35,706 nt of DNA, from the IMG/VR virus record IMGVR_UViG_2698536570_000003, positions 1-35,706 of that record. One strand, 5' to 3'. Under the pieces are notes generated by a model that did not search any database, had not been told where the DNA came from, and saw only the letters and a program-made list of their open reading frames with translations. The stretch is from a virus (Duplodnaviria; Heunggongvirae; Uroviricota; Caudoviricetes). Within the stretch, counting starts at the first letter, position 1; each line of letters starts with the position of its first letter. Shown here one piece after another: positions 4,298 through 24,952 of this stretch. A program made the position numbers and the translations under genes.

Positions 4298-4582
4298 AAA
4301 TGGGGCAATGGTAATGTTGAATCTCATCCCGGGACTCATGTCTGTTAACTTATTATTTAGCTGGTGACTTGGTTATTTGCCTGATGTTTAAAATGTTTTC
4401 TTCCAGTACAATGTCCCTAAACACAATGAGTCTGCTTATTATATTATTAGCAGAGCTATTACGGCCAAAGTACAGCATAAGCTTTTAAAGCCAATCAACC
4501 AGTCATCAAGACAGACGGGGTTATTCATAAAAACTCTCCATGTGTGATCCGATGGGGCCTGAAATTAAAGCTTTAATATAGC

Positions 4583-4795: not shown

Positions 4796-5095
4796 AAAAA
4801 TTCCTTAATACTGATAACTTGGCGCACTATACACACGTTCCTGAAGAAAGCTATAGTTTTTTGATGGGGTTGAAGATGGCTGGATGTCTAAAATAAACAT
4901 TGCTTCATATGTTCAACTATGCGTTAATGATTGCGTCGGTTTGAAGAACAGACGATATACGAAGTAGTTTACTAAAGCAGTTCTCATTTCAGGTGTTATT
5001 CACTTATTCCTTCTTTGAGTCTCTCCAATTAAGTACGAAGTCGTTTCTGTTATGCAAACCATTTATGCCGAAAGGCTCAAGTTAAGGAATGTAGA

Positions 5096-5311
5096 ATGTC
5101 AAATAAAATGACTGGTTTAGTAAAATGGTTTAACGCTGATAAAGGTTTCGGCTTTATTTCTCCTGTTGATGGTAGTAAAGATGTGTTTGTGCATTTTTCT
5201 GCGATTCAGAATGATAATTATCGAACCTTATTTGAAGGTCAAAAGGTTACCTTCTCTATAGAGAGTGGTGCTAAAGGTCCTGCAGCAGCAAATGTCATCA
5301 TTACTGATTAA
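5096..5311 (+). CDS. cspB: cold-shock protein (71 aa)
   Basis: [23 protein letters not shown]...; RNP motifs KGFGFI and VFVHF; long 5' leader. Confidence 0.9.
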
Positions 5312-5583
5312 AATTCATCGCTCGTCTGTATACGATAACGAAGAAGGCTGATGCCTGAGTAGAGATACGGACAGAGTAGTGAATATTGGATCTCTTTAAT
5401 AAAAAGTAAGGAGGTCCAATACATGAAACAATGGCTAGCATATTTGGCAAAATCTTAATCAGGAAAAGTATGCTAACCATTGTGGTGAAGTGCAGGTTTG
5501 CTGCATGAATAGTTTTACAGCAGAAGCTAACTGCTGGCATGGCAAAACAAAGTGCGTAAGTGGATGACTCCCACAAAAAGCAC

Positions 5584-7620: not shown

Positions 7621-7982
7621 GGTAATATTAAATCGGAACATTTACATCGCGGAATGTAAAATTTAAATAAAAAGGACTCTTCCATGAGCCAAAATTCCTG
7701 AAATCTTAAGGGTAAGATAAAAGGTCTTAATCAGAATGACACGTTTTATTAATAAATAAAGCTATTCTTTCATTGCTGTGTTTTTCTTTACAAAAGTAAT
7801 CCTTGCTATGGGTGGTTAATCATGCGTTAATGGTGTTCTGGTTTGTTACAAATTTATCTGAAGCAGTCATTGTTATAATTTTATTATTTGTACCTCTTGA
7901 GATTTCCTTGTTGGTTTTTCTCTCTGATATTTTTTTTCGGACCATTCTGCCCAAGGGCTAATTTCTTCAAAAGGTAATAATT

Positions 7983-8195
7983 ATGTCTAACAAAATGACT
8001 GGTTTAGTGAAATGGTTTAACCCTGAAAAAGGTTTTGGTTTCATCACGCCGAAAGATGGCAGCAAAGATGTGTTTGTCCATTTCTCAGCAATTCAGAGCA
8101 ACGATTTCAAAACATTAACTGAGAATCAGGAAGTTGAATTTGGTATTGAGAACGGACCTAAAGGTCCTGCCGCTGTTCATGTAGTGGCGCTTTGA
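7983..8195 (+). CDS. cspI: cold-shock protein (70 aa)
   Basis: [23 protein letters not shown]... cold-shock domain. Confidence 0.9.
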
Positions 8196-8399
8196 GGTAG
8201 ACAATATTACAAACCATATTCACTTTAGATGCCCGTGTTGTCATGGTTCCCAGTATAGAACATCATCTTTTGATGTTTCTGACATGAATCCTTTCGGGGC
8301 AAAATGTATCTTTTGTAAATCAATGATGATTACATTTGATAATATTTCACAATACTTAAATGCCAGCCGTCTGTCGTTGGATTTGAAAAAGTGAAAATG

Positions 8400-16227: not shown

Positions 16228-17160
16228 ATGTCGATGTACACAACCGCCCAGCTGCTGGCGGCAAATGAGCAGAAATTTAAGTTTGATCCGCTGTTTCTGC
16301 GTCTCTTTTTCCGTGAGAGCTATCCCTTCACTACGGAGAAAGTCTATCTCTCACAAATTCCGGGACTGGTAAACATGGCGCTGTACGTTTCGCCGATTGT
16401 TTCCGGTGAGGTTATCCGTTCCCGTGGCGGCTCCACCTCTGAATTTACGCCGGGATATGTCAAACCCAAGCATGAGGTGAATCCGCAGATGACCCTGCGT
16501 CGCCTGCCGGATGAAGATCCACAGAATCTGGCGGACCCGGCTTACCGCCGCCGTCGCATCATCATGCAGAACATGCGAGACGAAGAGCTGGCCATTGCTC
16601 AGGTCGAAGAGATGCAGGCAGTTTCTGCCGTGCTCAAGGGCAAATACACCATGACCGGTGAAGCCTTCGATCCGGTTGAGGTGGATATGGGCCGCAGTGA
16701 AGCGAATAACATCACACAGTCTGGCGTCACGGAGTGGAGCAAGCGTGACAAGTCCACGTATGACCCGACCGACGATATCGAAGCCTACGCGCTGAACGCC
16801 AGCGGCGTGGTGAATATCATCGTGTTTGACCCGAAAGGCTGGGCGCTGTTCCGTTCCTTCAAAGCCGTCAGGGAGAAGCTGGATACCCGTCGCGGCTCTC
16901 ATTCCGAACTGGAGACAGCGGTAAAAGACCTGGGCAAAGCGGTGTCTTATAAGGGAATGTATGGCGATGTGGCCATCGTCGTGTATTCCGGACAGTACGT
17001 GGAAAACGGCGTCAAAAAGAACTTCCTGCCGGACAACACGATGGTGCTGGGTAACACTCATGCACGCGGTCTGCGCACCTATGGCTGTATTCAGGATGCG
17101 GATGCATTGAGTGAGGGTATTAATGCGTCTCCCCGTTATCCGAAAAACTGGAAGACATGA
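16228..17160 (+). pseudogene. E: major capsid protein gpE, N-terminal 312 codons, interrupted; stop codon TGA supplied by the first bases of the insertion
   Basis: MSMYTTAQLLAANEQKFKFDPLF... matches lambda E up to ...PRYPKNWKT, then stop; the missing 29-codon C-terminus is at 24857-24952. Confidence 0.88.
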
Positions 17161-17202
17161 TCCACCGCGCGATAAATAAGCCGCAATCCGTGAGATAAAT
17201 GG
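17158..17202. repeat. left terminal region of insertion (TGATCC..., GATAAATA at 17171, CCGTGAGATAAATGG at 17188)
   Basis: Motifs mirror the right end in reverse complement. Confidence 0.6.
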
Positions 17203-17218
17203 ACACGGTGCGGCTTTT
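17180..17218 (+). terminator. hairpin plus T-run just inside left end of insertion
   Basis: GCCGCAATCCGTG...CACGGTGCGGC followed by TTTT; would stop read-through from E. Confidence 0.4.
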
Positions 17219-17245
17219 CAGATACTGCAAAGGAATTACAAATTA

Positions 17246-19723
17246 TCAGTCGTAAGCAACCCGGCGCTTACGGGCAAGAATAGCTTCCAGCGCTCTTTCA
17301 ATCTCAGGAATGGACAGCTTAAGCGCATTCGCTACATCCGGTGCTGGTGACTTGTTCTTGCCATCAATATAGATATGGTTAATGACGTTAATCCCTGCAC
17401 CTGCCGGTGAATGTGAATCCCGGCCTCTGGATAAGGTAAGGTCGCCGCGCATATAGCGCTCTAATACGGGTGGTACTTTCGGTACATCCGGCACCATCAT
17501 ATCAGCCAGCCGCGAGGAGGCTTTTAGCGCCAGCGATGCAGACTGACCGATACCAATCGCCGCCCCTTCTGCGATGTTTGAACCGAAGCCCATAAAGACC
17601 CGGCTTGGCGAGTGAATCCCCAGCTTTTCCTTGAACCACCCGCCGACGCTATCGCCCATCTCGGTAACGGTATTCTTGAGCGACTCCCACTTATTTTTGA
17701 TACCGTTCACCAGTCCGTCAATCAGGTGACCGCCAAACTCGGTAAACTGGCCGGGAAGGTCGATGTTAAACCACTTCATGACCCCCGCAAACGCCTTGTA
17801 GAACAGCCCCAGCGGCGACCAGTTCAGGATTAGCTTACTGACGCCGAGAACGCCGCCGTTAAAGGCCGTTTTGACTTCCTCCCATCGCTGTGAGAACCAT
17901 CGACTTATTGCCCCCCAGTTGCGGTATATCAGGTATGCGCCCCCGGCGATGACGGTTATCGCAATGCCTAAGGGATTCATCATCAGCGCCCGGCCAAACC
18001 AGAGAAATGCTTTTGCAACGACCATGACGCCCCTGAACAGCCCACCTGCCAGCGCTTTACCCAGCGTCCCGGCTCCCTTCGCTACGGTACTGAATCCAGT
18101 AGCCAGCCAGCGCAACCTGCCACCAACACCAAGTGCGGCTTTCAGCTTCACCCAATGAGTGTGTACCAGAACAGCGTTTTTCCACATCCCAACAAAAGGT
18201 GAAAAAAGCAGATTAAGGCCGAGCTTCAGACCGACAGTGGCAATTTTCAGCCCCAGCAGTGCGCCCACGGTTTTTGCCACACCCTGAACAAGCGTCGGAT
18301 GTTGCTCTATCCAGAGCTTCGTTGTCTGAATCATCGGGATTAATTGCCGGGTTGCTGACACAAATGTAGGGGACAACTGATCGCCGAGAGAGATAGATAA
18401 ATCACGGGTGTTTATCATCAGGGCTTTGGTTGCTTCCAGCGGCGATTTGAGCCTTTCAGCATAGGATGCCGCCAGCAGGTCATTATCAGCCGCTTTAAGT
18501 GCACCAGAGCGGATTGCCCTGTATTTATCCATGTTAGCAAGCATAGGGCGAACGAACGCCATTACCTGCATATCGGTGAACATCTCACCCAGCCCAAAGT
18601 TTTTAGCCAGACTTTGTAAGGCCTCGTCCCGCGCTTTGTTGTCCTGAATTTGCATTGCGGATTTAAAACCAGCCAGAGCTTTCGGACTCGTTGCATTAAG
18701 GTATCTTTGGGTTACATCCAGCATACCTTCAATGGGGGAAACTCCGGCTGCTTTATAATTCGCAAGAGACCCCATCAGGTCGATACCTAAATCGGCAAAT
18801 CGCTTCTGCGTATCAGGCGCAAAAATCTTGGTGAGGAAGTTCCTGAAATTGTTTGCAGTCTCATCCGGTGAACCTGAACCAATCATAGCGACCTGCAAAC
18901 TGGCCCCAATCTCCGCCACTGCATCCTTACCGTCTGCAATACCCTGCATCATCGGCGCAAGCGACTGAATCCATTTCACCTGGTCAGGGATTTCAAAAGA
19001 CCCCTGGTCACCTGCGTAGGCCATGATGTTCTGTACCGCGCCAAATTCTTTTGCGCTGCCTTTCAGCGAGTTTTGCCACACCGCCGCAACCTTTGCCCAT
19101 TCCGTTCCTGCGGTACGGGTTGCCGTGGCTGCACGGGCGATATTCGGCATGTAGTTGCCAATATCTGAAAGCCCGTCAATGTTATCGCTGATAAGTGAAC
19201 CAACGGCGTCCTGCATATCGCTCTGATACTGGTTGTATTTGAGCGACCACCCTTTGATTTGCTCTCCCAGAGTCTTACGGGTTTTATCGTCATATTTCGC
19301 TGTGATTGACATATCAATCATTTTATCTTCAAACGATGCCGACTGTTCTATAGCCGGGGACACAAGACTGTAAGCAGCCCTGACTTGTGCATACGCCTCT
19401 ACTCCCTGACCGTAGAGCGCCATGCGGTTAGATTTCAGGGCGTCAGAAGTGGCAGACGCTGCCGACAGGCGGGACTGCTGGCGGTTAAGCTGTTCCAGCG
19501 TTCTGCCGACCCGTTGCAGGTCATTGTTCAGGCGCGAGGCTACGCCCGAACCAACCTGACCGTAACGCTGCATGGCGCGTGACAGGCTGCTTTGCTGCTC
19601 CGTCAGTCGGCGTGAGGTGTCGCCGAGAGAATCCAGAGTACGCCGGGTACTGCTCATCGCGGAACGAAAACTGCTCCCGACAATGCCGCCAATCATCACG
19701 CCAACAGAAAAATTATTGCTCAT
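17246..19723 (-). CDS. tape-measure-like protein (825 aa)
   Basis: Long helical N-terminal part, Gly/Trp/Phe-rich hydrophobic middle, C-terminal GIHSPSRVF-type motif; no search run. Confidence 0.55.
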   Translation of the reverse strand: MSNNFSVGVMIGGIVGSSFRSAMSSTRRTLDSLGDTSRRLTEQQSSLSRAMQRYGQVGSGVASRLNNDLQRVGRTLEQLNRQQSRLSAASATSDALKSNRMALYGQGVEAYAQVRAAYSLVSPAIEQSASFEDKMIDMSITAKYDDKTRKTLGEQIKGWSLKYNQYQSDMQDAVGSLISDNIDGLSDIGNYMPNIARAATATRTAGTEWAKVAAVWQNSLKGSAKEFGAVQNIMAYAGDQGSFEIPDQVKWIQSLAPMMQGIADGKDAVAEIGASLQVAMIGSGSPDETANNFRNFLTKIFAPDTQKRFADLGIDLMGSLANYKAAGVSPIEGMLDVTQRYLNATSPKALAGFKSAMQIQDNKARDEALQSLAKNFGLGEMFTDMQVMAFVRPMLANMDKYRAIRSGALKAADNDLLAASYAERLKSPLEATKALMINTRDLSISLGDQLSPTFVSATRQLIPMIQTTKLWIEQHPTLVQGVAKTVGALLGLKIATVGLKLGLNLLFSPFVGMWKNAVLVHTHWVKLKAALGVGGRLRWLATGFSTVAKGAGTLGKALAGGLFRGVMVVAKAFLWFGRALMMNPLGIAITVIAGGAYLIYRNWGAISRWFSQRWEEVKTAFNGGVLGVSKLILNWSPLGLFYKAFAGVMKWFNIDLPGQFTEFGGHLIDGLVNGIKNKWESLKNTVTEMGDSVGGWFKEKLGIHSPSRVFMGFGSNIAEGAAIGIGQSASLALKASSRLADMMVPDVPKVPPVLERYMRGDLTLSRGRDSHSPAGAGINVINHIYIDGKNKSPAPDVANALKLSIPEIERALEAILARKRRVAYD

Positions 19724-19755
19724 GGTTCACTCCGGTAATGAGTGGTTCGGTGGCG

Positions 19756-20349
19756 TCATTCGGTCAGGGACAGGCCGCTGATTCCGGTAATCCCGGCAAT
19801 TTCCTCGCTGACAGCCATCAGTTCACTTTCAAGCCCGGTACGTTCGCTGACCAGCGCCGCAACGGTCTTACGGCGTTCTGCCAGTGACGGAAGTTTGTCA
19901 TTGCCCCACACCACGCTTTTATCCTTCTTAAGCGCTTCGGTCAGGCGGGTGGCGACCACATCCGGGAAGAAAAAGCAGAGCTTGCGCATAACCGCCATCC
20001 CGGTATCAGCCGGGGAGATGTTTCCACCCAACCCCACCAGACGGAACAGGCCGGAAATATCGCCGCTCTCATTCTCCAGATTGCCCCAGCGTTCGGCGTT
20101 CCCTTCACTGCCGGAACTGTTGCAGAGGACACGCTTGAATGACTGATATTCTTCCTGCCCGAATCGCTCAATATATTCAGGAATGAAAGAACAGTAATCA
20201 TTAAGCGATAAAGGCATATCCTGTAATGTGGTTATTTCGCCGTTAATTTCACTAATGCGGCGAGAGAGTTTTTCTTTCTGCTCATTCAGGGAGGCAAGAT
20301 TATTTTTAACGGCGTTCAGTGCTTCGATAAGGGAAATAACTGGTTTCAT
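19756..20349 (-). CDS. hypothetical protein with N-terminal coiled coil (197 aa); chaperone or scaffold candidate
   Basis: ORF in track, directly upstream of the tape-measure-like gene. Confidence 0.4.
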   Translation of the reverse strand: MKPVISLIEALNAVKNNLASLNEQKEKLSRRISEINGEITTLQDMPLSLNDYCSFIPEYIERFGQEEYQSFKRVLCNSSGSEGNAERWGNLENESGDISGLFRLVGLGGNISPADTGMAVMRKLCFFFPDVVATRLTEALKKDKSVVWGNDKLPSLAERRKTVAALVSERTGLESELMAVSEEIAGITGISGLSLTE

Positions 20350-20350
20350 T

Positions 20351-20965
20351 TTAATAACTCCAGATAAAAGGCGTGGTGAGTGTGAGTGCTTCGGAATAGG
20401 AGACGTTACAGGCTTCGCTTACATCCTTTATTAAAAGGTGCTGCGCTGCTCTCTGGCTGTCAGCTATGCCGTCGAACTCTGAGAAATAAACGTGTGATTC
20501 ATTGTGACCAAAACAGACCGGGTAAGCGCTTTCCATAAATTCCACCTGCTCCAGCCCTTTAACGGCTGGCGGCTGTGAGCCGAGAAAACCGATATGGCGT
20601 AGATACCAAGCTCCGGTGCCTGCCGGGTTGCTGGCCTCGCCGGGCTTATAGAATGACGCAGATACTTTCCTGTAACGCCCTGAGCGCACCAGCCCCAGCA
20701 GGGTATCATCCGGTTTTACCAGTGCGAAAAGCCTGCCGTTCTTGCTTATCAGTCCGGTGGTTTCGCCATAGGCCGGGCTGTTACTGGCCGGATGCCCCAG
20801 ACACAGCGGCGCACCGTAACCCGCGCTGCGATAGCCGTTATAGGCCGCTGCCATGTTGTCGATATCCTCGTCGGAAAAGCTGATTTCCTGTCCCGCCATC
20901 GCGGTATGCGTTCCCGCCCGGAATATCTCAATCGTTTTCCAGTTGCCCAAATTAAGATTTGTCAT
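20351..20965 (-). CDS. hypothetical protein (204 aa), tentatively Mu gpI-like protease-domain
   Basis: Motifs RSGRYRKVSASFY and LRHIGFLGSQPPAVKGL resemble my recollection of Mu-I family proteins; recall is uncertain. Confidence 0.35.
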   Translation of the reverse strand: MTNLNLGNWKTIEIFRAGTHTAMAGQEISFSDEDIDNMAAAYNGYRSAGYGAPLCLGHPASNSPAYGETTGLISKNGRLFALVKPDDTLLGLVRSGRYRKVSASFYKPGEASNPAGTGAWYLRHIGFLGSQPPAVKGLEQVEFMESAYPVCFGHNESHVYFSEFDGIADSQRAAQHLLIKDVSEACNVSYSEALTLTTPFIWSY

Positions 20966-21007
20966 TTACCTGTTCTCGGTTGTGATGTGTAAACAGTGCT
21001 TTGCTGC

Positions 21008-21382
21008 TTAGTGTCTGGCAGCGCTATCTTTCAGGCTGTTTCTGTATTCACGGCGTTTTTGGGCGATAATGTTGTAAATCCATTGCAGGGAATAGCCGTA
21101 TTTTTTCGCTATTTCAGCGATGGGAATACCTTCATTAAAGTCTGCAAAAACCAGATCATATTTCTCTTCATTCTGGTCTTTTGTTCCTTTTGGGAAGTAA
21201 AGGTTAAGCCCGCCGTATACATCTGACAGATACGCCATGATGTCTACAGCGATAGATTCAGACTGACGTTTATCGACACCGTACATGACAAGGCGGCAGG
21301 AAATGTGCGTAGCCATATCACTAAGCACTTCGGCAGATTGACGCATTTTTTGTTTGTTGGTCATGACTATCACCCGTTGCAA
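21008..21382 (-). CDS. Mor-family transcriptional activator-like protein (124 aa)
   Basis: C-terminal half (YGGLNLYFPKG...FADFNEGIPIAEIAKKYGYSLQWIYNIIAQKRR) aligns by eye with Mu Mor HTH region. Confidence 0.55.
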   Translation of the reverse strand: MQRVIVMTNKQKMRQSAEVLSDMATHISCRLVMYGVDKRQSESIAVDIMAYLSDVYGGLNLYFPKGTKDQNEEKYDLVFADFNEGIPIAEIAKKYGYSLQWIYNIIAQKRREYRNSLKDSAARH

Positions 21383-21603
21383 TATCAGTAATTCAGTCAG
21401 AAAAGGCTTTATAAAGCTTTACAGCGTGCGACTGGCGGTAAAGGCGAACCTTGACCGCAGCAAACCAGCCTGACGGCTTAGAAAGCGTTACAGCACCTTG
21501 TTAAAGTCAGTTAATAATATCGGGTGTGGGCGGGGATGTTTTTTAATGTACTTTAGATATGAAGAAGCCCCTCAGAGGAGGGGCTTCGCGGGATTACGCC
21601 AGA

Positions 21604-21894
21604 TTATTGAGGCCGTCTGTCTTTCCTCAATCCATCAAGTAGCGCCATTGCATCAGTAACCAGTATGCCAGCAGCATCCGTAACCATAGAAACATCAGAG
21701 GATGCACATGATTTATCCGTACCTAATGTAGACGCAAAATCAAGTAGCTTACGAACTGCATCAAGTCGGTAGGTGGCAGAGTCGTAAATTAACTCCTGAT
21801 TAGCATCAGTCTTTAAAAACATAATATCATCAGAGGCACCTTGTGAAAATGACGGCATCGCACGGAAAGTATTTTGAGTTTCAGCCTGTTTCAT
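21604..21894 (-). CDS. hypothetical protein (96 aa)
   Basis: ORF in operon context, overlaps neighbour by 4 nt. Confidence 0.35.
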   Translation of the reverse strand: MKQAETQNTFRAMPSFSQGASDDIMFLKTDANQELIYDSATYRLDAVRKLLDFASTLGTDKSCASSDVSMVTDAAGILVTDAMALLDGLRKDRRPQ

Positions 21895-22652
21895 TGTGCA
21901 GCCCTCCGGCTAATAGCGAATTTATTATAAACTTCATAACTGGCAGCATTCAGTCCGGGGTTGTATTTATCAGCCAGAGCACAGGCAATCATATGTTCAA
22001 TAAATTTTGTTATTGCGTTAAGTTCGGTTTCGTCTGAATAACGCAATGCCACTTTGAGTAACTCGCGGCAATATTGCTTTTTATTCTCTTCGATTTGGCC
22101 TGATTGTTTTATTCCTGCCTTTTTATCTAACTCGTCCTCAACAGGCAAAGATGAGATATCCTCTTTATTGGTTAGCGTTCTTTCGCAAATAATATCTTCA
22201 CCAGATTGAATTACGCGCTGCAACTCTCTGGCGCTCATGCGAAGAATATCATCAAGCGTGTGGTCGTTATATGCCCCACCACTGGCAAGGAGATCCAGTG
22301 TCACTTCATCCAGCCGGGCAAGCAGATTTAACTTCGTTTTGCCGATATCTGTTTTGGCAATTGCGGCTCGTGGTGTGTCACCGCCGAACACATGAGCGAT
22401 TCGCATCGCTTTACGTGCATCGGGCAAGTTTATGCGCCATCTGTGAAGAAAGTTCGTAAACTCACCATGTTGCAGTTCCTCTTTACAGGCAAATATTTTC
22501 TTTCCCAAAGAAACCAAGCCTTCGGCCTCCGATGTCGTTTTAGCGTGAGAACTGTGAATCACGCCACTGACCACCGCAGATAAAACACTTTCTTGGTTTG
22601 TTCCAAATGAATCGTTAGACTTATCATTAGCCATGACTGTTATCCTACGCAT
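21891..22652 (-). CDS. hypothetical protein (253 aa, start uncertain), first gene of leftward operon
   Basis: ORF in track; translationally coupled to the 96-aa ORF. Confidence 0.4.
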   Translation of the reverse strand: MRRITVMANDKSNDSFGTNQESVLSAVVSGVIHSSHAKTTSEAEGLVSLGKKIFACKEELQHGEFTNFLHRWRINLPDARKAMRIAHVFGGDTPRAAIAKTDIGKTKLNLLARLDEVTLDLLASGGAYNDHTLDDILRMSARELQRVIQSGEDIICERTLTNKEDISSLPVEDELDKKAGIKQSGQIEENKKQYCRELLKVALRYSDETELNAITKFIEHMIACALADKYNPGLNAASYEVYNKFAISRRAAQ

Positions 22653-22772
22653 AACGGTTTACTGGTTAGGCCATAGCAAGTGCTCGCAACATTTGTTATG
22701 GCCGTTTCTCTAGACCTTTCCCTGTGTTAAGGTATAGACCTAATAAGCAAACACTAAGCTATAGGTCTATAC

Positions 22773-22964
22773 ATGTCAACTATCTTGCGAGATAAAAGCC
22801 CTAAAGGGGCAGGTAAAGCCCCGATGTTCAATGTCAGGATTTCACCAGAACTGAAAGAACAGTTTGAATCACAAGCAAAAAAAGAAGGTGTTAGCTTAGG
22901 GAATTGGCTCAAAGAGCTTGGGAGAGCAGAGCTTAAGCGCAACGGAATTGACCCGAAGGCTTAA
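22773..22964 (+). CDS. Arc/Mnt-like ribbon-helix-helix DNA-binding protein (63 aa)
   Basis: PMFNVRISPELKEQFESQAKKEGVSLGNWLKE fits the RHH pattern of P22 Arc; divergent from the leftward operon. Confidence 0.5.
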   Translation: MSTILRDKSPKGAGKAPMFNVRISPELKEQFESQAKKEGVSLGNWLKELGRAELKRNGIDPKA

Positions 22965-23000
22965 ATTTAGTTACTAAAAAACAATAGCTTAAGGTATTTT

Positions 23001-23086
23001 TGATAAATATTTATCACTTGTATTCGACATCATAGTGATAAATATTTATCATTCACAGCGCATCGGCACATGATAAAATGTTATCA
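23001..23086. promoter_or_regulatory. three 16-bp palindromic operator-like sites, 35 bp centre to centre
   Basis: TGATAAATATTTATCA at 23001-23016 and 23036-23051 (identical, perfect palindromes); TGATAAAATGTTATCA at 23071-23086. Confidence 0.6.
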
Positions 23087-23101
23087 CTTTGAGGCTAGTT
23101 T

Positions 23102-23446
23102 ATGCGTATACATGTTACTCTTAATGGCAAAAAAACAACCATATCGATAGATGACTTGCTCTTCGACTATCTTGGTGCATGGTTGGTTGAACAAAGACCC
23201 AAACTGCACTCAAAACCTAAAGAGCAGTATGACCAAGCTAAGTCTCAGATTCGTAAATATGTGCAAGATAACGCAGAAAAACTCCCATCTAAGAACCTTA
23301 GCCAGCACATACAAAATGCCATTTTAGAAATAATTATGCCGAAAGAATTAAATGAAATTCTAGAGAAAAGAGGGCCAAGATATGAGAAGAAAAAGTTTGA
23401 TGTGACCACAATTTTCCCTGATTGGGAAAATTATCTGAGAAAGTAA
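23102..23446 (+). CDS. hypothetical protein (114 aa), possible DNA-binding/regulatory
   Basis: ORF in track with GAGG RBS, directly after the operator array. Confidence 0.45.
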   Translation: MRIHVTLNGKKTTISIDDLLFDYLGAWLVEQRPKLHSKPKEQYDQAKSQIRKYVQDNAEKLPSKNLSQHIQNAILEIIMPKELNEILEKRGPRYEKKKFDVTTIFPDWENYLRK

Positions 23447-23465
23447 TTAAATCAATGGATTGTAT

Positions 23466-23607
23466 ACCGCTCAGCGCTGAGCGGTTCTGTGGCTCTAGAT
23501 CTGCCAACGTTGGCAGATTTGCCAATACCGCATTTGATTGATGGTATCGAATCGCAAATGTCCCAGCGCTGGGAATCATCCCCAAAGGCGCAGACATCTG
23601 CGCCTTT
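23466..23607. repeat. cluster of four distinct palindromes/hairpins
   Basis: ACCGCTCAGCGCTGAGCGGT (23466-23485), ATCTGCCAACGTTGGCAGAT (23499-23518), TCCCAGCGCTGGGA (23561-23574), AAAGGCGCAGA-CA-TCTGCGCCTTT (23584-23607). Confidence 0.6.
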
Positions 23608-23734
23608 GAGAAGCACGGAACTAAAATCCGTTTCACTGTATGACTGTATGGTATGAGGCTTTCAGATGCTTACTGAGGCTTAAATAAGCTAATGAAGTTT
23701 GCATCATCTGTTCCAAGTTAGTACACTTATCCCT

Positions 23735-23766
23735 GTTAGTGGATGCGTGACGCGCTCTGGTTGAGG
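23735..23766. repeat. left arm of 32-bp perfect inverted repeat
   Basis: GTTAGTGGATGCGTGACGCGCTCTGGTTGAGG; exact reverse complement at 23925-23956. Confidence 0.8.
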
Positions 23767-23820
23767 CTCATTACCTTGAACAGAGATTCATCACCTTAAG
23801 CACCCAAAGAAAAAAGCCTG

Positions 23821-23870
23821 NNNNNNNNNNNNNNNNNNNNNNNNNNNNNNNNNNNNNNNNNNNNNNNNNN
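23821..23870. other. run of 50 N (assembly gap or masked sequence of unknown true length)
   Basis: Seen directly. Confidence 0.99.
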
Positions 23871-23924
23871 GCATGTGAAACGTGTTCAAGCCCTGGCTGG
23901 ATTACGGGTGGTGCCGCTCCAGTG

Positions 23925-23956
23925 CCTCAACCAGAGCGCGTCACGCATCCACTAAC
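23925..23956. repeat. right arm of 32-bp perfect inverted repeat
   Basis: CCTCAACCAGAGCGCGTCACGCATCCACTAAC. Confidence 0.8.
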
Positions 23957-24028
23957 AATGCAACACCGTTAACCAGGCAGTGGAAGGGCTTTAATGGTGA
24001 TGCCGCGCTCCTGTAGTGGAGCAAACGG

Positions 24029-24112
24029 ATGAAGGGATTTCTTCAAATCGCTGTCATCGCTCTTAAGGCAATTGTCGCCTTTATTGAGCTGATTCTGGCC
24101 TGCTTACCGTAA
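24029..24112 (+). CDS. candidate 27-aa hydrophobic peptide (MKGFLQIAVIALKAIVAFIELILACLP), type I toxin-like
   Basis: ATG with GGAG 8 nt upstream; single predicted TM helix; followed 20 nt later by a strong terminator. Confidence 0.3.
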   Translation: MKGFLQIAVIALKAIVAFIELILACLP

Positions 24113-24133
24113 GCAACCGGGAAACGTAAGTAA

Positions 24134-24166
24134 GGCCACCGGCTCACCCCCGGTGGCCTTTAACAT
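24134..24166 (+). terminator. intrinsic terminator
   Basis: GGCCACCGG-CTCACCC-CCGGTGGCC followed by TTTAACATTTT. Confidence 0.55.
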
Positions 24167-24365
24167 TTTAAGTCTGCCTCGCCGCTCTACCGGCCATTCA
24201 TTTTTGAAGCTGGCTGAGTGTTAAGGCTAAATTTAAGGTGGCACTGACGGCTTAAATTCCTGCGATATCCTGGCATGTCGTTATGATTAAAGCGCATTAG
24301 AAACAAATTTCATCGTTCTGATTAAACATGTTTACCTGACTATTCAAAGTAAGGTAAATCTCAAT

Positions 24366-24710
24366 ATGGCACGACCTCAGACGGTTAATCAGTTACCCGA
24401 CTCTATCAAGAAGAAACTGAATAAAAAGCTGACGGAAAGTTCATTCAGCGGCTACGTTCAGCTTACTGAGTGGTTAAACTCGTTGGGATACCCGGTTTCA
24501 AAATCATCAGTGCATCGCTATGCTGAACGTCGCCGCCTGTCACTTATAGCAGGGAGCGATACTCCCGGCGCAACAGCTAACATTGTGGATACGAAACTTC
24601 GCTGTCTGGAGCTTGCCTCGCTCTCTTTAAAAACGGACGAGAAGTTGTCAGCAGATGAAGTAAAAAAATATGCTGAAAATTTGATGGGGTGGCTTTACGA
24701 CCAGAAATAA
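24366..24710 (+). CDS. HTH-containing small protein (114 aa) near right end of insertion; regulator or terminase-small-subunit-like
   Basis: Segment YVQLTEWLNSLGYPVSKSSVHRYAERRR looks like a helix-turn-helix; ORF in track. Confidence 0.45.
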   Translation: MARPQTVNQLPDSIKKKLNKKLTESSFSGYVQLTEWLNSLGYPVSKSSVHRYAERRRLSLIAGSDTPGATANIVDTKLRCLELASLSLKTDEKLSADEVKKYAENLMGWLYDQK

Positions 24711-24809
24711 TTGACTGCGCGGGAGGCGTGCCCTCCCGTTACGTATATGGAAACTGTTTTACAAATTCCCATCCAACCTTTTCCAACATCTTCCCCCATA
24801 GTCCCACAA

Positions 24810-24850
24810 TTATCTCACGGATAACCCTGTATTTATCTCATGTCTAATCA
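24810..24850. repeat. right terminal region of insertion (reverse complement carries CCGTGAGATAA at +30 and CATGAGATAAATA at +8)
   Basis: Mirrors the left end. Confidence 0.6.
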
Positions 24851-24856
24851 AAGACA

Positions 24857-24952
24857 TCCGGCGATCCGGCGCGAGAGTTCACCATGATTCAGTCAGCACC
24901 GCTGATGCTGCTGGCTGATCCTGATGAGTTCGTGTCCGTTCAACTGGCGTAA
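24857..24952 (+). pseudogene. E: detached C-terminal 31 codons of major capsid gene E (SGDPAREFTMIQSAPLMLLADPDEFVSVQLA)
   Basis: Matches the lambda E C-terminus; in frame with the N-terminal fragment if 17158-24856 is removed. Confidence 0.85.

Follow-up and report, generated by a model that had tools for sequence, protein, structure and literature searches.

Four palindromes clustered in the window (the whole 35,706-nucleotide stretch of viral DNA that was analyzed) are quite likely dyad-symmetric binding sites for dimers of DUF3102 proteins of differing specificity, arrayed on a candidate satellite of BcepMu-like transposable phages. These phages are referred to here as helpers. The evidence for the binding-site reading is comparative throughout and comes from the window, from sister copies of the element that carries the cluster, and from the helpers.

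The four palindromes are labeled by array unit and are listed below, with a dot at the dyad center. All of them lie 3' of the 114-aa ORF.
23466 to 23485: unit K, a perfect 20-bp palindrome ACCGCTCAGCGCTGAGCGGT, equal to ACCGCTCAGC·GCTGAGCGGT, of the CAAA-N6-CARC·GYTG-N6-TTTG family.
23499 to 23518: unit L, a perfect 20-bp palindrome ATCTGCCAACGTTGGCAGAT, equal to ATCTGCCAAC·GTTGGCAGAT.
23556 to 23576: unit M/N hybrid, AAATGTCCCAGC·GCTGGGAAT.
23561 to 23574: the 14-bp perfect core of the M/N hybrid, TCCCAGCGCTGGGA.
23583 to 23608: unit P, CAAAGGCGCAGA-CA-TCTGCGCCTTTG, with a 12-bp stem and a 2-nucleotide spacer.

The 204 nucleotides 3' of the 114-aa gene contain four palindromes with arms of at least 7 nucleotides, three of which have arms of at least 10. 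The random expectation for arms of at least 7 is a mean of 0.068, and none of 20,000 first-order Markov randomizations gave four. In the same randomizations, a single arm of 10 nucleotides or more already had a probability of only 0.0008. The three long-armed palindromes exceed in length every other one in the 35.7-kb window that is loop-less or nearly so. The dense cluster of four described in the initial annotation is therefore confirmed in place, at four against an expected value of approximately 0.07. The hairpin reported there with an 11-bp stem is present as well, but its stem is one base pair longer and has the spacer given above.

The window region is 100% identical to the chromosome of Escherichia coli AW1.7, and the cluster is carried there by a mobile element without a transposase. 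This element spans 17158 to 24850 and is 7,754 bp in length when unmasked; a run of 50 N at 23821 to 23870 stands in for 111 nucleotides of the AW1.7 record. The element has TGAT...ATCA ends (TGATCC... and ...TAATCA) in which the motif GAGATAA(A/T)T is repeated, and it is bordered by AAGACA, a target duplication of 6 bp. Independent insertions were identified at three sites, with a separate 6-bp duplication at each: in AW1.7, the gene for the major capsid protein of a lambda-like prophage; in E. coli VREC0864, a PTS gene; and in Enterobacter roggenkampii, a site adjoining a LysR gene. Another copy, with its end motifs located, is present on a Citrobacter IncF plasmid. The genes nearest to the palindromes are as follows.
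21891 to 22652, minus strand: the element's own DUF3102 gene, a paralogue of the helper protein with a helix-turn-helix that may be ParB/KorB-like by fold.
22773 to 22964, plus strand: an Arc/HicB-like ribbon-helix-helix (RHH) gene.
23102 to 23446, plus strand: the 114-aa gene, missing from six sister copies that carry a long array (L007, L008, L009, L012, L039, and L049).
24366 to 24710: a TerS-like gene, 0.8 kb downstream of the palindromes.

The element encodes a tape-measure-like protein (TMP), a truncated head protease/scaffold, Mor, DUF3102, the Arc-like RHH protein, and a TerS-like N-terminal domain. No relaxase, Rep, replication, or recombinase gene was found in its gene content. The TMP, TerS, protease/scaffold, Mor, and DUF3102 genes are diverged copies of the helper genes, and the element's proteins are 31 to 47% identical to those of the BcepMu-like prophage resident in AW1.7. 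The right end of the element is nearly identical to the end of this prophage (TGATTAGACTTGAGATAAATGACAGGGGATAAGTGAGATAATTATGGG) and also matches the end of phage Phi06_2974 B. Element and helper occur together in AW1.7 and in IMG genome 2713896776. The features that define phage satellites, namely a lack of genes for autonomous replication and structure, cis sites in common with a helper, and co-occurrence with it, are thus all present. Since the element has no transposase and has helper-like ends and genes, it appears to be a non-autonomous, satellite-like derivative that a transposase of the helper family would mobilize, and it is regarded here as a candidate satellite of BcepMu-like transposable phages. 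A literature search found no description of such satellites of Mu-like or other transposable phages.

Several other features of the window were recorded. The 114-aa gene has its own operator-like palindromes, TGATAAATATTTATCA, at 23001, 23036, and 23071, the third of which is imperfect; they overlap its promoter (23001 to 23086). These operators recur upstream of a homologue with 49% identity in an unrelated contig rich in GC (L004, 1136 to 1255). In that contig, other palindromes (GCTGACAGTCAGC, GGTGACGGTCACC, GGTGACCGTCACC, GCTGACGGTCAGC, ACTCCAAACGGTTTGGAGT, ACTCCAAACGTTTGGAGT, and CTCCGCACCGTGCGGAG) lie at 1680 to 2025, 3' of a 153-aa homologue of the 114-aa protein, and may form an analogous array for another phage family. 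A hairpin, GAAGCCCCTCAGAGGAGGGGCTTC, is located at 21564 to 21587 between the Mor gene and a 96-aa gene and is kept in most of the satellite copies examined; possible roles are termination or Mor-dependent regulation.

Short tandem-like direct repeats, TGAGGCTT(T/A)CAGATGCTTACTGAGGCTTAAATAAGCT, occupy 23654 to 23690 between unit P and a putative sRNA promoter and are kept in sister copies. This promoter (23699 to 23727) belongs to a type I toxin-antitoxin-like module at 23699 to 24112. Within the module, 34 nucleotides at 23734 to 23767 are exactly complementary to 23924 to 23957, which is within the 5' UTR of a 27-aa hydrophobic ORF (MKGFLQIAVIALKAIVAFIELILACLP, 24029 to 24112) whose substitutions between copies are mostly synonymous. 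Among the masked 111 nucleotides is AAAAAAGCCTGACCTCACCAGTCGGGCTTTTTTT, a strong bidirectional terminator at which the putative sRNA would end. Against Rfam, the module gave a weak OrzO-P match of 24.5 bits (threshold 60). Outside the element, the window has two full-length Rfam cspA thermoregulator matches, at 4935 to 5327 (158.8 bits) and 7837 to 8222 (112.8 bits).

Sister copies of the element contain 8 to 14 palindromes of 16 to 32 bp at the same place, as counted by an automated scan, and approximately 16 unit positions can be named across the compared copies. The array copies that lack the 114-aa gene are those of E. coli CX21 (L008), ST131 strains (L007), Erwinia tracheiphila (L009), Intestinirhabdus alba (L012), a metagenome-assembled contig (L039), and a Citrobacter plasmid (L049). 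In the sister elements, the array starts directly after the stop codon of the RHH gene. Its units share the dyad-centered frame CAAA-N6-CA(A/G)C·G(C/T)TG-N6-TTTG, in which the flanks and the 8-bp center stay constant and each arm has six inner bases that vary without loss of symmetry. The consensus CAAA-N6-CARC·GYTG-N6-TTTG is held by 53 distinct satellite units and by 23 helper types.

The units in the window are orthologous to K, L, a deletion hybrid of M and N, and P, which are the last units of the array. Judged by this alignment, the four palindromes are the 3' remnant of a longer array. The window retains only the last four units because the 114-aa gene replaced the first 10 or so. The earlier proposal of a multi-site region thus holds, on a larger scale than the window itself displays. 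Unit K is the same in five other copies (L002, L003, L007, L012, and L039). In the M/N hybrid, two adjacent units are joined by a deletion, and its counterpart in L012 has the full AAATGTCCCAGCGCTGGGACATTT (unit M) followed by ATTCCATGCGCTGGGAAT. The center of unit P is GACATC in the window and GACGTC in relatives, which gives them a perfect palindrome of 26 to 28 bp (L009, 6771 to 6796; L039, 6731 to 6758).

Lack of conservation of the palindromes in related copies had been named in the initial annotation as grounds for refutation, and the comparison came out the other way. Across six aligned copies, 85% of palindrome columns are invariant versus 45% of spacer columns, so that the palindromes are better kept than the sequence between them, which favors function. 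Two Enterobacter roggenkampii genomes carry the four-palindrome cluster exactly as in E. coli AW1.7, and in the VREC0864 copy (93% identical) the units are better conserved than the spacers. Among 5,426 E. coli genomes, three have the cluster and approximately 23 others have a diverged remnant. The ST131 copies (L007) are clearly degenerate remnants adjoining an IS5.

Within the satellite family, only the branch of the Enterobacteriaceae and Erwinia has the array. Relatives of the satellite in Rahnella, Brenneria, and Pectobacterium do without it; each has one long palindrome of other sequence approximately 0.5 to 1 kb 3' of the RHH gene (L018, 6698 to 6725; L028 and L030, 7123 to 7146). A BLAST search of the array against phages and plasmids returned nothing beyond a 28-nucleotide match to a helper site and one plasmid-borne satellite copy. 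A scan of IMG/VR with the generic pattern gave matches at chance level, only 2 of 58 with complementary arms, and the family is therefore not a general one. Two other readings of the array were considered and rejected. An 80-aa ORF is annotated there in CX21, and spacing differences of 1 to 2 nucleotides break the frame in L007, L009, and L039; the stretch is non-coding because its spacer lengths shift the frame between copies. Derivation from a decayed DUF3102 gene was set aside because the palindrome alone matches such a gene and the flanks do not.

The first link to the helpers was the 28-nucleotide BLAST match, which was to phage KP12_2. This phage contains a 28-bp perfect palindrome, one base off satellite unit D, inside a DUF3102 gene just upstream of the transposase gene. 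AW1.7 itself has a transposable prophage of the BcepMu-like kind, which encodes an rve transposase, an AAA_22 protein, DUF3102, and Mor. Located at 4,418 to 4,441 kb of the chromosome, this prophage interrupts an Orn/Lys/Arg decarboxylase gene that neighbors melR. Its site, CAAATGTGCCAACGTTGGCACATTTG (L109, 20347 to 20372), is a different perfect palindrome at the same codon positions as in KP12_2, and is the sole long palindrome in the 27.5 kb of prophage examined. One such site per genome was present in both helper-type genomes that were scanned in full.

A sample of 80 helper-type loci was taken from IMG/VR, and the site could be located in 72. At the fixed position within DUF3102, approximately 25 codons 3' of the helix-turn-helix, 12 of 12 base pairs are symmetric in 55 of the 72 loci and 11 of 12 in a further 16. 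The sites comprise 23 distinct 24-mers, which puts the number of sequence types at 23 or more. The peptide encoded across the site changes along with it (KAQALALL, NVPTLAHL, KRSTLSVL, KAKTFSLL, and others), and selection therefore acts on the symmetry of the DNA and not on the peptide. A distant helper-type phage (L192, 1 to 26 and 1598 to 1640) has an asymmetric hybrid site, CAAAACGGCAGGC·GCTGGCGCATTTG, inside DUF3102 and also a perfect CAAAACGGCAAGCGCTTGCCGTTTTG at the contig start, 1.6 kb upstream of the in-gene site.

Satellite units and helper sites vary at the same positions and with the same alphabet. Of the satellite units, 21% are within one mismatch of a sampled helper type, versus 5.6% in symmetric column-shuffled controls. 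Unit L differs from the site of the resident AW1.7 helper, CAAATGTGCCAAC·GTTGGCACATTTG, by one base per arm in the 20-bp palindrome and by 3 of 24 in the 24-mer. Unit K has four mismatches in 24 to the closest sampled helper type, AAAACGCTCAGC·GCTGAGCGTTTT, and unit P likewise differs from its best helper match at 4 of 24. The helper types related to the M/N hybrid are AAAAGTCCCAGC·GCTGGGACTTTT and ATTCCCAGC·GCTGGGAAT. Possible resemblances of the palindromes to LacI, PurR, and MetJ operators and to CRP sites were set aside in light of the helper data.

The helper DUF3102 gene contains a hypervariable block of approximately 170 nucleotides that, in a sliding-window comparison among helpers, ends at the palindrome. 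The block encodes ...ENEPHGxF-xxIxExxLGL-xxxxxx-RMMQAS..., a helix-turn-helix. When columns were examined one at a time, association with site type was highest at residues 85 to 101, which are the end of helix 2 and the recognition helix. The recognition-helix residues and the half-sites with which they occur are listed below.
RTSV: half-site TGTGCC.
RAAQ: half-site (A/G)CGACA.
QVAR: half-site CGCTCA.
RTAR: half-site CGGACA.
RAAR: half-site CGGCCA.
RTAQ: half-site GCGC(C/A)A.
STAH: half-site GTCCCA.

A discordance test recorded, for each segment, the highest identity between pairs of helpers with different arms. The values are as follows.
Repressor side: 97%.
Small HTH genes: 97%.
DUF3102 N-terminus: 92%.
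HTH block (150 nucleotides): 73%.
Immediately downstream: 96%.
Transposase: 99%.

Strict coupling to site type is thus limited to the HTH block, which is also the DNA nearest the site, in the 80-locus helper sample; the repressor, N-terminus, downstream sequence, and transposase are uncoupled. The suggestion of the initial annotation that loop-less palindromes point to protein binding rather than termination gains support from this coupling. No earlier description of a polymorphic module of site and HTH in such phages was found. Pfam detected DUF3102 alone in the helper and satellite DUF3102 proteins, and no relation of DUF3102 to ParB/KorB by sequence was obtained from a sequence profile against the PDB, from Pfam on 32 members, or from Foldseek. 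A literature search found nothing on DUF3102 function.

Under the favored reading, a dimer of the helper DUF3102 protein, with a putative ParB/KorB-like fold, would bind the palindrome, and the in-gene palindrome would be the cognate site of each helper's own DUF3102. Specificity would be polymorphic among helpers, and the satellite would display several specificities side by side, so that its array could bind DUF3102 from any helper that happened to be there, and perhaps the satellite's own paralogue as well. The recognition helix of the satellite's DUF3102 is also hypervariable, and this protein may use some of the array units. Once bound, the array might recruit the helper transposition machinery in an enhancer-like or centromere-like manner, titrate the helper DUF3102 protein, or sense early expression of the helper. 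The helper transposase (rve-type DDE, 589 aa) has no detectable Mu-type enhancer-binding domain, which leaves room for an accessory DNA-binding protein and proves nothing.

A bolder version of this scheme is put forward tentatively, as a possibility that we would not yet bet on. BcepMu-like phages would carry a hypervariable module of HTH and palindrome, and satellites would counter it with a "key ring" of up to approximately 16 palindromes, each fitting a helper type, so as to capture or titrate the protein of any helper. The window would then contain a four-key remnant.

Several other explanations were weighed against the DUF3102 reading. The palindromes could be RNA hairpins in the 3' UTR of the 114-aa/RHH transcript, acting as bidirectional terminators, insulators, or stabilizers against 3' exonucleases. 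The position of the array directly after the RHH stop codon would suit this role, as would the GC-rich stem between an A-run and a T-run in every unit, the strong folding on both strands (z of −5.2 and −6.2), and a sub-threshold match to the terminator-like STnc40 hairpin. That match scores 29 bits against a threshold of 45 and is equal on both strands, as is the folding energy; both strands fold strongly and equally, as any palindrome does, which makes folding uninformative here. When Rfam was run at gathering and E-value settings on the window, L001, and L009, no family reached threshold for the palindromes, and the only matches in the window that did so were those to cspA elsewhere. A scan of 22600 to 24900 for terminators (a GC-rich stem-loop with a 3- to 8-nucleotide loop, followed by a T-run of at least 5 in 8) called none of the four palindromes, in which the T-runs are 3 to 4 long and lie within the palindrome. 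The structured RNA suggested by the initial annotation accordingly found no backing. In the helpers, moreover, the palindrome lies well inside a CDS that precedes the transposase gene within one operon; termination at this position would do damage, and 8 to 14 consecutive terminators have no obvious use. The fixed 8-bp center and the helix-turn-helix coupling would also go unexplained. Compensatory changes, a further check proposed with that annotation, do occur as symmetric changes between units, but they fit base-pair covariation less well than they fit a protein dimer. A dimer of varying specificity explains them better because both of its half-sites must change together, and by this logic each palindrome is read as a putative DUF3102 dimer site. 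In a comparison meant to tell the strands apart, mismatches within the units, counted without correction for kinship, are G·U in 13 cases and A·C in 37, mostly at outer flank positions. A low probability is assigned to the RNA hairpins overall.

Binding by another protein, unrelated to helper DUF3102, is an unlikely explanation too, the candidates being the Arc-like RHH protein, the 114-aa protein, the satellite DUF3102 by itself, or a host factor. The array lies directly 3' of the RHH gene, MetJ and other RHH proteins recognize short CG-centered palindromes, unit P of relatives contains AGACGTCT, and the satellite has a DUF3102 of its own with a variable recognition helix. However, the RHH gene is kept in many relatives without an array and the 114-aa gene has its own, different operators, which makes either product an unlikely binder. 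More than 20 arm variants are hard to explain by a single protein, and helper sites of the same family co-vary with the HTH of helper DUF3102. It is very improbable that the palindromes act as cruciforms or single-strand hairpins at a replication or transfer origin, as a pac site for the TerS-like protein, or as recombination sites. Several of them are long and perfect, the TerS-like gene is close by, and small terminases often recognize repeat arrays; yet the element moves by DDE transposition with 6-bp duplications and has no relaxase, Rep, or recombinase, which also counts against the oriT or ori-like origin first proposed. The helper site, furthermore, is separated by 5.4 kb from the TerS gene of the helper and by 7 kb from whichever genome end is closer, and it co-varies with DUF3102. 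Lastly, the four units could be a non-functional remnant, decaying since the 114-aa module replaced most of the array. Just 4 of approximately 16 unit positions are left, M/N is a deletion hybrid, the center of P is mutated, and the ST131 copies next to an IS5 are degenerate remnants. Against this, K and L have kept their perfect symmetry, AW1.7 and the two E. roggenkampii genomes have the same cluster without a difference, the units are better conserved than the spacers in VREC0864, and unit L remains one base per arm from the resident helper site. Complete loss of function is considered quite improbable; the copy in the window may be partly decayed, with M/N truncated, P mutated, and K and L intact.

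If the reading as DUF3102 sites is true, it would give DUF3102 a first function, site-specific DNA binding, and would identify its cis site. The gene adjoins the transposase in a prophage family of approximately 12% of complete E. coli genomes. It would also mean that transposable phages have a polymorphic system of specificities, akin to immunity or incompatibility groups, and would point to phage satellites of a type that relies on the helper's transposase for movement. The key ring, if true, would be a sequence-readable record of the arms race between satellite and helper. The correspondence between recognition-helix residues and half-site bases would be readable, testable, and engineerable. 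The array would in addition be a simple bioinformatic marker for these satellites and for the matching of helper and satellite.

Among known systems, REP and BIME sequences resemble the array in being clusters of short GC-rich palindromes in non-coding stretches. They differ in that one sequence is present in hundreds of genomic copies, whereas the array units all differ. A REP/BIME reading was rejected, as the units are restricted to this element family, apart from single occurrences in helper phages, and are not dispersed genome-wide. Like P4, SaPI/PICI, and PLE, the element is small, lacks replication and structural autonomy, encodes homologues of the helper's packaging and capsid genes that are diverged or truncated, and has cis sites in common with its helper. 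Unlike them, it is apparently moved by the DDE transposase of the helper (TG..CA-type ends and 6-bp duplications) and not by its own integrase. A literature search found no description of a multi-specificity site array on satellites.

The enhancer (IAS) and operators of Mu, which are bound by MuA domain I-alpha and the repressor, are likewise cis sites that a transposable phage carries internally, in its early region, and the Mu enhancer serves in recognition of its own genome by the transposition machinery. The helper site differs in being a single perfect palindrome inside a CDS, and any role for it in transposition is putative.

The ParB-parS, SopB-sopC, and KorB-OB systems are close in kind, since in these, as would be the case for the array, palindromes are read by HTH dimers of the ParB fold. 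Their arrays are composed of dyad-symmetric sites of approximately 13 to 28 bp with a conserved core, as are the satellite units and helper types. Protein specificity co-varies with the site in both, the HTH block here being at most 73% identical between helpers with different arms versus 92 to 99% elsewhere. The location of parS within spo0J parallels the in-gene site of the helpers. The ParB N-terminal (CTPase) domain was not detected in the DUF3102 proteins and no ParA-type gene is annotated in the satellite and helper regions examined; the pair of DUF3102 and palindrome is therefore not a canonical partition system. The context also differs, being a transposable phage and its satellite here rather than a plasmid partition locus. 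The sopC repeats are identical, whereas the units of this array all differ and match different specificity types. From these sequence comparisons, the feature is probably a heterogeneous array of ParB/KorB-style sites on a transposable-phage satellite.
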